Assembly: GCA_902773355.1 (NCBI GenBank)
Contig: CACYEI010000030.1
Coordinates: forward strand, 30,822 to 94,821
DNA: 64,000 nt
Direction: 5' to 3'
DNA from: an uncultured Spirochaetales bacterium
Lineage (GTDB): Bacteria; Spirochaetota; Spirochaetia; Sphaerochaetales; Sphaerochaetaceae
Below, one piece after another: positions 23,616 through 30,547 of this stretch. The translations under genes and the position numbers were made by a program. The notes under the pieces are model-generated. The model worked only from the letters and a program-made list of their open reading frames with translations. It was not told where the DNA came from and did not search any database. Each line of letters begins with the position of its first letter. Position 1 is the stretch's first letter.

Positions 23616-23670
23616 CATTTGAGTAAAAAAGAAACAAAATAATAAACAAATTTTTCATTTGAGTAAAAAA
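23616..23670 (+). repeat. Two perfect 15-bp direct repeats CATTTGAGTAAAAAA with 40-bp phasing (candidate enhancer/UAS)
   Basis: Copies at 23616..23630 and 23656..23670, 60-115 bp upstream of the -24 element at 23730. Confidence 0.6.
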
Positions 23671-23729
23671 TAACCATTTTTATAAAGAAATTATGATTAT
23701 ATTTAAATTACCCCCTCTTTTTTTTATGT

Positions 23730-23745
23730 TGGCACAAAATATGCT
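23730..23745 (+). promoter_or_regulatory. Sigma-54 type -24/-12 promoter
   Basis: TGGCAC-AAAAT-ATGCT. The GG and GC are spaced as in the TGGCAC-N5-TTGCW consensus, 22 nt upstream of the ATG at 23768. Confidence 0.7.
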
Positions 23746-23767
23746 TATTTAATTTACAGAGGTTTAA

Positions 23768-24646
23768 ATGAGAACAAAAAATTACAATGATGAATCTGAT
23801 ATTAAATTTAATAACAAAGAGGAAGAAACAAGAGATTCACTTAATACTTATATCCATGAAATAGAAAAAATATCACTTTTAAATCCAAAAGAAGAATATG
23901 AACTGGCATTGAAAGCAAAATCTGGGGATAATGAAGCTAGGGAGAAACTATTAAATTCTAATTTAAGATTTGTAGTAAGTGTAGCTAAATCCTTTCAGAA
24001 CAGAGGATTACCATTAGAAGATTTGATAAGTGAAGGTAATATAGGATTAATAAATGCCATAGATAAATTTCAACCTGAATTAGGCAATAAATTTATAAGT
24101 TATGCTGTATGGTGGATAAGACAGTCAATAATTAAAGCTATTGGAGATAAATCAAAATTAATCAGACTTCCAATGAATAGAAATGTACAGCTAAATTCAA
24201 TTCAAGCAGCAAAAGCTCTTTTGGAAAAAGATGGCAGCGAGGCAACAATTGAAGAAATTGCACAATCTTGCGGAATAGATGAAGACAATGTAAGTTCTCT
24301 TCTTAACATATCAAATAATGTCTGTAGTTTAGATGCACCACTAACAGAAGATGAAAGCCATACCTTTGGTGATATTCTTGAAGATAAGGCAGATGGTCCA
24401 GATGAAATTCTGCTAACCAATTCATTAACTCAAGCTATTGATAATATAATGTCTAATTTTACTGAACGTGAAAAAAATATCATAATACTAAGATATGGTC
24501 TGCATGGAGCTAAACCTCTTAGCTTGAAGGAAATAGGAGAAATATACGGCCTCTCTAAAGAAAGAATCAGACAGATTGAAAAAAAGATAGTTTTCAGACT
24601 CTCAAAAGATGAAAGTGTTGCTGATTTAAAAGCCTATATAGCTTAA
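23768..24646 (+). CDS. Sigma-70 family RNA polymerase sigma factor (RpoS/RpoD-like, regions 1.2-4)
   Basis: 292 aa with NLRFVVSVAK, EGNIGLINAIDKF, YAVWWIRQSI (region 2) and LSKERIRQIEKK (region 4.2). Confidence 0.88.
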   Translation: MRTKNYNDESDIKFNNKEEETRDSLNTYIHEIEKISLLNPKEEYELALKAKSGDNEAREKLLNSNLRFVVSVAKSFQNRGLPLEDLISEGNIGLINAIDKFQPELGNKFISYAVWWIRQSIIKAIGDKSKLIRLPMNRNVQLNSIQAAKALLEKDGSEATIEEIAQSCGIDEDNVSSLLNISNNVCSLDAPLTEDESHTFGDILEDKADGPDEILLTNSLTQAIDNIMSNFTEREKNIIILRYGLHGAKPLSLKEIGEIYGLSKERIRQIEKKIVFRLSKDESVADLKAYIA

Positions 24647-27648: not shown

Positions 27649-27717
27649 TGTAAATCCCTTTTTATAATCATATTTTTTACAGTCTTATTAATTTTTTAAT
27701 CATAATCAATAGAGGTT

Positions 27718-27749
27718 AAAAAAATAGGGTTAGAGATAATCTCCAACCC
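27718..27749 (-). terminator. Rho-independent terminator after hsp20
   Basis: On the minus strand, GGGTTGGAGA-TTA-TCTCTAACCC (one G-U pair) followed by TATTTTTTT. Confidence 0.7.
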
Positions 27750-27819
27750 CTGAGGTATTTATGACTCATATAAAACACACAGAGTCATTAAAAGTTACAA
27801 AATTATTTGTTATTCTTAA

Positions 27820-28230
27820 TTATTTGTTAATCTTAACTTCAATTTTTTTAGGTTGCTCTACAGGTTTTTTAGGTAAGGTTACTGTTAAGATACCATTCTT
27901 AAATTCAGCTGAAATAAGAGATTCATCTACACTTTCAGGAAGTGAGAAAGATCTATCAAACTTAATATAACTACGTTCTTTAATAATAAACTTCTTATCA
28001 TCTTTTTTTACAGATTTTTCAGAAGAAATATGAAGAACATGTTTTTCAACATTAACATTAACATCATCTTCTGAATATCCTGCAAGCTCTGCTTCCACAT
28101 AATAAGCATTTTCATCTTCTATTACATCCACTGATGGAATCTTACTATTCTTAACACCCCAGTTCCCAAATACATTATTAAATAAAGTCTCAAAATCATT
28201 ATCATTAGTTCTAGTCATCATATAATTCAT
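27820..28230 (-). CDS. Hsp20/alpha-crystallin family small heat-shock protein
   Basis: Start set at the ATG at 28230 (AGGAG 8 nt upstream). The alpha-crystallin domain carries AELAGYSEDDVNVNV and NGILTVTLPK motifs. Confidence 0.9.
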   Translation of the reverse strand: MNYMMTRTNDNDFETLFNNVFGNWGVKNSKIPSVDVIEDENAYYVEAELAGYSEDDVNVNVEKHVLHISSEKSVKKDDKKFIIKERSYIKFDRSFSLPESVDESLISAEFKNGILTVTLPKKPVEQPKKIEVKINK

Positions 28231-28284
28231 AATCACATCTCCTATTTTATAATTTCTATCAGTTTAAACTGACACTTATGTCTT

Positions 28285-28300
28285 AGCATTTACTGTGCCA
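28285..28300 (-). promoter_or_regulatory. Sigma-54 type -24/-12 promoter upstream of hsp20
   Basis: The minus strand reads TGGCAC-AGTAA-ATGCT, with the same spacing and the same ATGCT -12 element as at 23730. It lies about 55 nt upstream of the hsp20 ATG. Confidence 0.65.
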
Positions 28301-28546
28301 AGTTTTAAAAATATAGTTGTATATATAAATTTTATCATATTAAACAATTTTATTATCTGTTCAATTCTCTTTTAATGTATCTTTTTTACCCATATGGTAA
28401 AAATTACACAATTTATGAGTAATTTATACTCAATCAAATAATAATAAGTTTATATAACTGGATTTATAACTGAAAACCTCATTTTCTGTTCAGTTTTTTT
28501 AAATAAAAAAGATTATAGAAATAAAAGAACTTAACAGGAGAAACAT

Positions 28547-30547
28547 ATGAAAAAAAGTATAAGCATATTTTTTTCTTTTCTATTACTAATATGTATGTAT
28601 TCATGTGCTGATGAATACAGCAGTGGTACTATGCATCTCTATATACATAGTGATGAAATAGCTAAAACAATAAAATTAGATGACAGCATTTCAGATATAA
28701 CAAAATTTTCAGTTTCTGGCATAGGACCTGGCGGAAAAACTTTCACTGTAGATTCTACAAGTTCATCTATAATAATAGAAGGATTACCTTTAGGAAACTG
28801 GGAAATTAAGGCTAATGGCTATAATACAAAAGGAAAGATAATTGCAACAGGCTCTTTAAATTTTACACTATCTGGTAATCAAGATCCTCAAACTATCAAC
28901 TTAAATACTATTTCAGGTACAGGTTCTCTACAATTACGTTATGAATGGAATGAAATTATGGAAAATTCTACTGTAGAAATAGAAATGTATAGTAATAACT
29001 ACCATGACTGTTATTTAAAGAAAACACTTGTAGTTCCCCCTTCTTCTTCTAATATATCAGTTAATTTTACAAACCTGCCTTCAGGTTACTATTTATTAAA
29101 GAGCAAACTAAACAACAATAATGTAACATTTGGAGGATGTGTAGATGCTGTTAAAATAATTAATGGAGAAAAAACTACAGGAATCATTAATTTTTCTGAA
29201 GAAGTTAATTCTGATTATAAAGAATTATATATCCCATATATAAATGGTTCCCCGCTCACAGCTCACATATCAGGACTTTCAAAAATTAATTCAACTAAAG
29301 ACCTTCAGTTAGAACTAATCTTAGACAAACAGTATGACCCGTCTTATAACTATATACTACAGTGGTACTTGGATGGTGTTCTTATAGAAGAAACAGATTT
29401 AAAAATAAATGAAAACAACATAAGTATAAACTCAAATTCAGGTATGCATATCTTAAATGCAGTAATGTTAAACAGAGAAAAGCATATCTGTGGATCTCTA
29501 ACAGAGAAATTTAAAACATCAGTTACAGGTAAAACTGGCGTACCAGTAAAAGATGGAATAATTACTGCTTTGACAAACAAAAACCTAATTATTGATAACA
29601 CGTCAAAATTTGGTTTATTACCAGACAATAAATGCGTAGTTGTAACACCAGATAGAGGAATAATGCAATTATTCAGTATAGTAAACTCTAGACCTGTAGT
29701 AGAACAAACTTTAACAGCATCAGAAAAAGGAACAGAATGGCTTTATGACACTACTGCCTTATTTTCAAATAAGGACATGAACATGTTTCTTCTAAATGAT
29801 TACAAAATAAACATGGATTACATGTTCTATAATCCATCCACTGGAAAAATAGAAAATGCACTACTTGGTGACAATATATTAAGACTAGAAGGGTCTACAA
29901 ACATACCTAGTTTCTGTGAATTTAATGGAACTAGATATGCCACTTTTATTCCATCTGAAGATGGAGGCGGGGTAATAGCTTCAATAGACAGCAAATGCAG
30001 TAAAGGCTATCAGGTTGTCTCTAGTAATTCAGGGCCATATTTATGCTGTGTATTAGATGTAAATGCCTCCATTGGTCCAAAAATTATGAAAGGCTATGAC
30101 GACAAAATTGTACTTTCAGGTTCCGGTACTTCCATATATTCAGCATCTTTTAATGGTACACAAAGAACAAGTAAATGGTATGAATCAAAAATAGGTATAT
30201 CTGATATTACAGATTTTATATTCTTGGACCGAACAAATATATTAGTAACAAACGGAAATAGAATTGTTCACTGCAGATATAATATTGGAAGTCAGACATG
30301 GAATAGTATTACATCTTTTGAAGCTAATGTTAAACATCTGATTAGTGGAAATACATCTCAATATTTTTATATATGTGATTCAGATAACAATATAATAACA
30401 TATTCAAATAACTATTATGCCTTTAATAAACTGGATACAACCTGTTTAGAGGAAGATATTGTAAAAATAATGATAACAACAGATAACCATATGTTATGCC
30501 CATGCAGTGATGGTTCTATTGTTATTTTAACAATTATAGAGGATTAG
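28547..30547 (+). CDS. Large lipoprotein, function unknown
   Basis: GGAG RBS and signal peptide with Cys (LLICMYSCADE). The N-terminal half is beta-rich and Ig-like by composition. No catalytic motif recognised. Confidence 0.6.
   Translation: MKKSISIFFSFLLLICMYSCADEYSSGTMHLYIHSDEIAKTIKLDDSISDITKFSVSGIGPGGKTFTVDSTSSSIIIEGLPLGNWEIKANGYNTKGKIIATGSLNFTLSGNQDPQTINLNTISGTGSLQLRYEWNEIMENSTVEIEMYSNNYHDCYLKKTLVVPPSSSNISVNFTNLPSGYYLLKSKLNNNNVTFGGCVDAVKIINGEKTTGIINFSEEVNSDYKELYIPYINGSPLTAHISGLSKINSTKDLQLELILDKQYDPSYNYILQWYLDGVLIEETDLKINENNISINSNSGMHILNAVMLNREKHICGSLTEKFKTSVTGKTGVPVKDGIITALTNKNLIIDNTSKFGLLPDNKCVVVTPDRGIMQLFSIVNSRPVVEQTLTASEKGTEWLYDTTALFSNKDMNMFLLNDYKINMDYMFYNPSTGKIENALLGDNILRLEGSTNIPSFCEFNGTRYATFIPSEDGGGVIASIDSKCSKGYQVVSSNSGPYLCCVLDVNASIGPKIMKGYDDKIVLSGSGTSIYSASFNGTQRTSKWYESKIGISDITDFIFLDRTNILVTNGNRIVHCRYNIGSQTWNSITSFEANVKHLISGNTSQYFYICDSDNNIITYSNNYYAFNKLDTTCLEEDIVKIMITTDNHMLCPCSDGSIVILTIIED

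Follow-up and report, generated by a model that had tools for sequence, protein, structure and literature searches.

A predicted sigma-54 promoter and an upstream palindrome in front of hsp20 in a Sphaerochaetaceae genome

The small heat-shock gene hsp20, located in a 64,000-nucleotide stretch of a Sphaerochaetaceae genome (the window), was found downstream of a sequence that, judged by its letters and its conservation, is a genuine, well-conserved sigma-54 promoter with an enhancer. Like all promoters of this class, it should remain inactive until its closed complex is remodeled by an enhancer-binding protein that hydrolyzes ATP. We consider it likely that hsp20 is driven from this promoter by an Rrp2-like activator positioned at a palindrome further upstream, and that the gene is co-controlled with a nearby gene for an RpoS-like sigma factor. 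The source genome, that of a reduced gut spirochaete, was 1.18 Mb in size with a GC content of 30% and an estimated completeness of 97.8%. An earlier note on the window had proposed the promoter, an inverted repeat at enhancer distance, and a regulon shared by the two genes.

The hsp20 promoter and its conservation

The principal features of the hsp20 region were as follows.

28285..28301, minus strand: predicted sigma-54 promoter, TTGGCAC-AGTAA-ATGCT, with GG at -25/-24 and GC at -13/-12 (from sequence and conservation)
28416..28432, no strand assigned: candidate upstream activator site, the perfect palindrome TGAGTAT-AAA-TTACTCA, TGAGTATAAATTACTCA (from homology with the palindrome of relatives)
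27820..28230, minus strand: hsp20 coding sequence, an alpha-crystallin-type small heat-shock protein of 136 aa (PF00011, E=1.6e-25)
28257..28274, minus strand: predicted transcription start at ~28274, 12 nt past the C of the GC, with a 5'-terminal stem-loop of 7 bp that includes TCAGTTTAAACTGA (28272-28259; from folding)

Read on the minus strand, the predicted promoter consisted of a T at 28301, TGGCAC at 28300-28295, AGTAA at 28294-28290, and ATGCT at 28289-28285, and it was located 54 nt 5' of the hsp20 ATG at 28230. The spacing of the GG and GC was 10 bp, and the single departure from a TGGCAC-N5-TTGCW-like consensus was an A in place of the T before the GC. All of the coordinates that the earlier note had given for this promoter were correct.

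Matches to the pattern TGGCAC-N6-TGC, also written TGGCAC-N5-NTGC, were counted in the window and in the genome. Two matches were found in the window, compared to the 0.17 expected from shuffled sequences, and seven were found in the 1.18-Mb genome, compared to none for a reversed-pattern control. Only three of the seven genomic sites were intergenic and oriented toward a downstream start: the hsp20 site (28300), a site in front of the RpoS-like sigma gene (23730), and a site on contig C50. The other four were located within coding frames, or overlapped crude open reading frames (ORFs) that had no gene start close downstream.

Orthologs of hsp20 with 45-71% identity were present in 55 of 61 related genomes, and those relatives of the Hsp20 locus that carried names were Sphaerochaetaceae and spirochaete metagenome-assembled genomes (MAGs) from the rumen or human gut. 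Within the family, TGGCAC-N6-TGC was found 40-110 nt 5' of hsp20 and in the right orientation in 24 of the 30 loci that were fetched, and three more loci had TGGCAT; counted in the form TTGGCA[CT]-N6-TGC, the motif preceded hsp20 in 27 of 30 relatives from the family. When 24 family orthologs were aligned, TTGGCAC and TGC were invariant and the flanks drifted. The consensus of this alignment, TTGGCACGCTTnTTGCWT, was that of a textbook sigma-54 promoter. Of 15 loci that were fetched independently from named Sphaerochaetaceae or gut MAGs, 14 also had the motif. Regions upstream of hsp20 were then taken from 20 loci of other families in the class, and all 20 had TTGGCA[CT]-N6-TGC in the correct orientation; the chance expectation was estimated to be ~0.014 matches per region.

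The earlier note had also treated the ATGCT of the -12 element as a special signature, and this idea was not upheld. The base before TGC was variable among the 24 orthologs (13 with T, 6 with A, and 5 with G), and the ATGC variant of the -12 element is also found in Escherichia coli sigma-54 promoters, such as that of fdhF (PMC2831329).

Several sequences upstream of hsp20 matched a sigma-70-type promoter at 9 of 12 positions, and a TATAAT-like A/T block was conserved 20-40 bp 5' of the -24 element in relatives. These sequences speak for a reading in which the -24/-12 match is fortuitous or vestigial and hsp20 is transcribed from a sigma-70-type promoter, which we regard as very improbable. 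The GG and GC dinucleotides, whose conservation in orthologous regions had been singled out for comparison in the earlier note, were invariant in the family and across the class, in more than 45 orthologous regions whose flanking DNA was unalignable. Moreover, the sigma-70-like matches were not enriched over shuffles of the intergenic region (10 found versus 6.9 +/- 2.6 expected), and the A/T block was not accompanied by a conserved -35 element in the hsp20 alignment.

The A/T block itself was partly palindromic (TAAT-N3-TTATAATATAAAAAATTA) and sat between the enhancer and the promoter of the hsp20 orthologs (loci L007-L033, columns ~405-440 of alignment A2). Its role might be that of a DNA bend, a binding site for a second protein, or the -10 element of a sigma-70 promoter.

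The upstream palindrome and the linked sigma gene

The candidate activator site was centered ~150 bp 5' of the predicted transcription start, with ~115 bp of A/T-rich DNA between it and the promoter. The earlier note had described an inverted repeat at this position and had tied it to repeats in front of the sigma gene through the half-site TGAGTA. The inverted repeat at 28432..28416 was confirmed. As for the half-site, a perfect TGAGTA-N5-TACTCA was present in one copy in the genome, and when up to two mismatches were allowed, it was not enriched in the window (4 found versus 4.09 expected). Because of this lack of enrichment, the half-site link was not significant from the source genome alone and was dropped. 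The link between the enhancers of hsp20 and the sigma gene therefore rests on homology with relatives, and on that basis it was recovered.

Specifically, the source palindrome aligned with a conserved palindrome in the 24 hsp20 ortholog regions, the consensus of which was TGTGTCAAAATGACACA (TGTGTCA-N3-TGACACA). In the relatives, the hsp20 palindrome was mostly 90-140 bp 5' of the -24 element, although a few loci had distances of up to ~230 bp. A second copy was present ~93 bp further upstream in some of the relatives. The pattern TGDGWC-N5-GWCHCA matched 32 times in 80 loci, compared to an estimated ~0.35 matches by chance. All of the matches whose positions were checked against the gene coordinates were upstream of hsp20 or the sigma gene. 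A looser enhancer pattern also matched four class-level hsp20 loci. The comparison of intergenic regions that had been suggested in the earlier note thus placed the palindrome upstream of both genes.

The sigma gene and its upstream region had the following features.

23768-24646, plus strand: gene for an RpoS-like sigma factor of 292 aa (best NCBIfam hit RpoS at 4.6e-76, below the model cut-off)
23729..23745, plus strand: predicted sigma-54 promoter of the RpoS-like sigma gene, TTGGCAC-AAAAT-ATGCT (from sequence and ortholog loci)
23620..23676, plus strand: two degenerate candidate enhancer sites, TGAGTAAAAAAGAAACA and TGAGTAAAAAATAACCA, 40 bp apart (from alignment with relatives)

The sigma gene was 3.6 kb from hsp20. 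The only sigma-70-family matches at E<=1e-40 were RpoD and the 292-aa sigma factor, and the best NCBIfam match of the latter was RpoS, not RpoH. The flanks TTGGCAC...ATGCT, which the earlier note had reported to be shared by the promoters of hsp20 and the sigma gene, were present in both sequences as described, and a -24/-12 match in the right orientation was found in 29 of 30 sigma gene ortholog loci. Further upstream, the CATTTGAGTAAAAAA direct repeats at 23620 and 23660 aligned with paired palindromes of the TGAGTCAAAATGACACA type in relatives, which were also 40 bp apart. The promoters, the sigma-54 machinery described below, and the shared conserved palindrome all support the earlier proposal that hsp20 and the sigma gene belong to one sigma-54/enhancer-binding-protein regulon.

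The predicted 5' untranslated region (UTR) of the sigma gene was only ~12 nt long (window 23729-23768), and a Shine-Dalgarno sequence, AGAGG, was located at about +3 to +7. Therefore, there would be scarcely any room for post-transcriptional control of this gene.

The palindrome might instead serve an unrelated dimeric regulator as its operator, or belong to the divergently transcribed lipoprotein gene at 28547, in which case the sigma-54 promoter would be activated from solution. Borrelia Rrp2 has been described as activating rpoS in an enhancer-independent way, the start of the lipoprotein gene is only ~115 bp from the palindrome, and the hsp20 palindrome is degenerate in one relative (G020). 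We judge this explanation to be quite unlikely. The palindrome accompanied hsp20 and the sigma gene whatever their neighbors were, and in most loci its distance from the -24 element was 90-155 bp. Two copies, ~40 or ~93 bp apart, were often present, which is typical of activator sites, and the activator that we favor keeps a conserved Fis-type helix-turn-helix (HTH).

Sigma-54 machinery and the candidate activator

The genome was checked for rpoN, the presence of which the earlier note had named as important for its proposal, and an intact gene was found. The 472-aa product matched PF04552 at 2.2e-43 and carried the RpoN box ARRTVNKYR, and the gene adjoined lptB. Exactly two full enhancer-binding proteins were encoded in the genome. 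Both consisted of REC, AAA+, and Fis-type HTH (HTH_8) domains, their PF00158 matches were at 1e-70 and 8e-69, and each activator gene was located directly 3' of its own histidine kinase gene. The first activator was a 451-aa NtrC-type response regulator encoded on contig C68 (C68:3421-4773; L002:1084-2439). Its partner kinase (389 aa) had HisKA and HATPase domains and no evident hydrophobic or membrane segment; the N-terminal region looked PAS-like by eye, and no PAS match was returned by Pfam. This kinase is probably cytoplasmic and PAS-containing. The second activator, encoded on contig C72, was a 449-aa protein with a canonical GAFTGA loop, and its partner kinase had a membrane segment.

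The Rrp2-like C68 regulator is the most likely activator of hsp20. It was favored because of its synteny with the sigma gene, the single activator of relative G020, and a change in its recognition helix, the last of which is suggestive. In at least 20 relatives, including members of other families, an ortholog of the C68 activator gene shared its contig and strand with the sigma gene, at a distance of 3-8 kb. In the case of G020 (1.2 Mb, estimated to be 100% complete), the sole true activator was of the C68 type, and both sigma-54 promoters were kept. The recognition helix of the C68 activator read GRKTLAKKL, versus GRKTLxRKL in relatives; this R-to-K substitution was unique among 18 sequences, as the 17 relatives had R at the seventh position. 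The strong enhancer half-sites in the source genome were TGAGTA, versus TGTGTC in relatives.

It is also conceivable that hsp20 is sigma-54 dependent and that the palindrome is bound by the C72 activator, the partner of the membrane kinase. The C72 protein has the same REC-AAA+-HTH_8 architecture as the C68 activator, and it carries the canonical GAFTGA loop. We consider this possibility to be unlikely, however, because G020 is without a second activator yet keeps both promoters, and because the synteny with the sigma gene was observed only for the Rrp2-like gene. In addition, the C72 helix (SRRTLIxKI) was unchanged in the source genome although the enhancer half-sites had changed, and the candidate promoter on contig C50, which has a different upstream repeat, would be a more natural C72 target.

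With the C68 regulator as the activator, the following sequence of events is envisaged. A stress signal, probably proteotoxic or oxidative, would be sensed by the cytoplasmic C68 kinase, which would phosphorylate the Rrp2-like regulator. As a dimer or oligomer, the regulator would bind the palindrome at 28432-28416, ~150 bp upstream of the start, and contact the sigma-54 holoenzyme by looping the ~115 bp of A/T-rich DNA. Sigma-54 polymerase would then transcribe hsp20 from the -24/-12 promoter at 28301-28285, starting at ~28274. The same activator would switch on the RpoS-like sigma gene via the two homologous sites, and a single signal would yield an immediate chaperone output (Hsp20) plus a secondary sigma cascade.

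Several observations weigh against this mechanism. The loop of the C68 activator is GSFTGA, not the canonical GAFTGA sigma-54 contact loop, and the label Rrp2-like was assigned from architecture and synteny. The co-variation of helix and enhancer is weak evidence, as TGTGTA half-sites also occur in some relatives that do not show the R-to-K change, and the degenerate hsp20 enhancer of G020, mentioned above, also belongs here. Sigma-70-like hexamers are present in the A/T-rich intergenic region (e.g., TGAACA-18-TATGAT at 28363-28334), and hsp20 may have a second, basal sigma-70 promoter. Finally, no HU/IHF-family gene (PF00216) that could assist looping was found in the 97.8% complete assembly, and IHF/HU-assisted looping was rejected on this ground. 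A bacterium without any HU/IHF homolog is unusual, and the absence may be a detection or assembly gap.

The transcript, the locus, and known systems

The palindrome TCAGTTTAAACTGA that the earlier note had reported in the 5' UTR was found at 28272-28259, where it formed part of a conserved 5'-terminal hairpin. The hairpin had a folding energy of -6.1 kcal/mol, versus -1.3 for shuffles. A hairpin was present at the equivalent position in about 14-16 of the 24 orthologs, with differing stem sequences (e.g., GTCCGG/CCGGAC, GTGTCC/GGACAC, CGGAT/ATCCG, and TCAGG/CCTGA). Across the 24 orthologs, folding of the first 30 nt was more stable than that of shuffles (mean z of -2.7; p=5e-5, Wilcoxon) and that of upstream control windows (p=3e-6). 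Because the structure was kept while the sequence varied, we argue that the element acts as RNA. The hairpin spanned +1 to +18, and the AGGAG at +32 to +36 was unpaired. The most likely role of the hairpin would be to protect the hsp20 mRNA from 5'-end-dependent decay, and its position offers indirect support for the predicted start.

Some of the stems in relatives (GTGTCC...GGACAC) resembled the enhancer, and the 5' UTR palindrome was therefore considered as a second activator site. This reading was rejected for three reasons: the core spacing between GTGTC and GACAC was ~9 nt, versus 5 in the enhancer; the stems varied in sequence yet kept pairing; and the 5' element in the source genome did not follow the GTC-to-GTA change of the enhancer.

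A separate set of structures was observed in the hsp20 5' UTRs of relatives. Short co-varying stems (TTAC/GTAA, GCAC/GTGC, ACAC/GTGT, and GAC/GTC) flanked GGAGG and presented this Shine-Dalgarno sequence in a hairpin loop. The stems were absent or weak in the source genome.

Two other modes of control were looked for and rejected. An RNA thermometer (ROSE, fourU, and similar) was rejected for hsp20 because the 5' hairpin does not touch the Shine-Dalgarno sequence; at E<=1, no Rfam family and no thermometer was found in 27700-28600, apart from one noise match elsewhere. Control by HrcA and CIRCE was rejected because no HrcA gene (PF01628) was found in the 97.8% complete genome and because a search for the CIRCE operator (TTAGCACTC-N9-GAGTGCTAA, with up to two mismatches per arm) produced a single poor match, on another contig. 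Thus, no rival heat-shock control was found, and this was counted in favor of sigma-54 control.

Three additional features of the hsp20 locus were recorded.

28239..28243, minus strand: Shine-Dalgarno sequence AGGAG, 8 nt 5' of the hsp20 ATG (read from the sequence)
27726..27750, minus strand: predicted intrinsic terminator with an 11-bp stem and a T run (from a sequence scan)
28383..28403, no strand assigned: perfect 8-bp inverted repeat, TTTTTACC-ATATG-GGTAAAAA, between the enhancer and the hsp20 promoter (read from the sequence)

The ATG at 28230 was preferred as the hsp20 start because the GTG at 28236, which was given in the ORF list, is too near the Shine-Dalgarno sequence. In the hsp20 upstream alignment, GGAGG was kept at the equivalent position in relatives. 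The terminator indicated that hsp20 is monocistronic. The inverted repeat at 28383..28403 was not conserved in relatives in the long hsp20 upstream alignment.

The third intergenic sigma-54-like promoter, CTTGGCACAAAAAATGCATATT, was located outside the window, just upstream of alaS (contig C50:4970-5100). It was followed by a candidate transcript of ~90 nt with a hairpin loop exposing CCUCCUUUU, which is anti-Shine-Dalgarno-like, and a strong intrinsic terminator (fold z -4.8). The candidate small RNA had no Rfam match. An ORF of 29 codons, also with a good AGGAGG site, was present on the opposite strand. The element thus represents a small RNA under sigma-54 control or, alternatively, a small gene.

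The analysis yielded a testable set of two targets, hsp20 and the gene for the RpoS-like sigma factor, together with a motif that is a candidate for binding by the Rrp2-type activator across the class. To our knowledge, almost no sigma-54 targets have been characterized in spirochaetes other than Borrelia. The results also suggest that a sigma-54 regulon can shrink far, in this case to ~3 promoters in a 1.18-Mb genome. In Treponema denticola, the sigma-70-family gene TDE0937 and Hsp20 (TDE1029) both take part in a core stress response that is common to heat, oxygen, and osmotic downshift, and the microarray study that reported this proposed TDE0937 as a possible stress regulator, with RpoS and sigma-B homologs missing there (PMC2965109). 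The target set would supply a mechanism for this proposal and would explain the co-induction of TDE0937 and Hsp20; the co-response of TDE0937 and TDE1029, in turn, is circumstantial support for sigma-54 control. The T. denticola kinase Hpk2 is an oxygen-sensing heme PAS kinase, and Rrp2 was called "unstudied" in the same organism (PMC12070737).

When the arrangement was compared to classical NtrC enhancers (e.g., that of glnAp2), the likeness was in the palindromes for a REC-AAA+-Fis-HTH activator, which were 90-155 bp upstream of a -24/-12 promoter and often paired. The NtrC site is TGCACC-N5-GGTGCA, and the motif here was different (TGTGTCA-N3-TGACACA, or TGAGTAT-N3-TTACTCA in the source genome). 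The arrangement also differed in that no IHF/HU gene was detected.

The earlier note had called sigma-54 control of a small heat-shock gene unusual, but it is less so than claimed, with precedents in E. coli ibpB (PMC2831329) and in clusters of the Bacteroidota and Planctomycetota (PMC12316311). Specifically, a 2025 survey with a position-specific scoring matrix described sigma-54 chaperone clusters that include IbpA/Hsp20 (COG0071) in these two phyla; the chaperone cluster was not reported for the Spirochaetia, a class in which other clusters were enriched (PMC12316311). Like the regulons of that survey, which belong to phyla lacking classical sigma-32 or HrcA control, the present case has a heat-shock gene behind a predicted sigma-54 promoter. 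Unlike them, it has the promoter only at hsp20, not at dnaK or groEL, and hsp20 is apparently coupled to an RpoS-like sigma gene. In the case of E. coli, a sigma-54 promoter of ibpB (Kuczynska-Wisnik et al. 2001, as cited in PMC2831329) was bound by sigma-54 RNA polymerase in chromatin immunoprecipitation, according to the citing account. The ibpB gene, like hsp20, is a small heat-shock (alpha-crystallin) gene behind a -24/-12 promoter; unlike the hsp20 promoter, however, the ibpB promoter is a secondary one inside the ibpAB operon, the main control of which is by sigma-32, and it matches the -24 consensus only weakly (TGGTAA). No activator or enhancer dedicated to the ibpB promoter is known to us. 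The hsp20 promoter differs from it in being near consensus, apparently the main promoter, and associated with a defined candidate enhancer. No new mechanism was revealed by the analysis.

The closest comparison was with the Hk2-Rrp2-RpoN-RpoS pathway of Borrelia burgdorferi, which likewise has an NtrC-type regulator beside a kinase and an RpoS-like sigma gene preceded by a sigma-54 promoter. In architecture, the C68 kinase and regulator appeared to match the Hk2-Rrp2 pair of Borrelia and the Hpk2-Rrp2 pair of T. denticola. As in Borrelia, in which rrp2-hk2 (BB0763/BB0764) is near rpoS (BB0771), the activator and sigma genes of the relatives were a few kilobases apart. Unlike the Borrelia cascade, the system described here would have hsp20 as a second direct target, and no small heat-shock gene of Borrelia is known to us to depend on sigma-54. 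Another difference is that both target promoters here have a conserved palindromic site, whereas Borrelia Rrp2 is reported to activate rpoS in an enhancer-independent manner. Our tentative suggestion, which may or may not prove correct, is that hsp20 and the sigma gene represent an ancestral, Spirochaetia-wide stress output of Hk2-Rrp2-sigma-54 acting through TGTGTCA-N3-TGACACA, and that the Borrelia virulence cascade is a derived, enhancer-free remnant without the hsp20 target. According to the same suggestion, the activator helix (R to K) and the strong half-sites (GTC to GTA) changed together in the source genome, which would make this genome a small natural case of activator/enhancer co-evolution.

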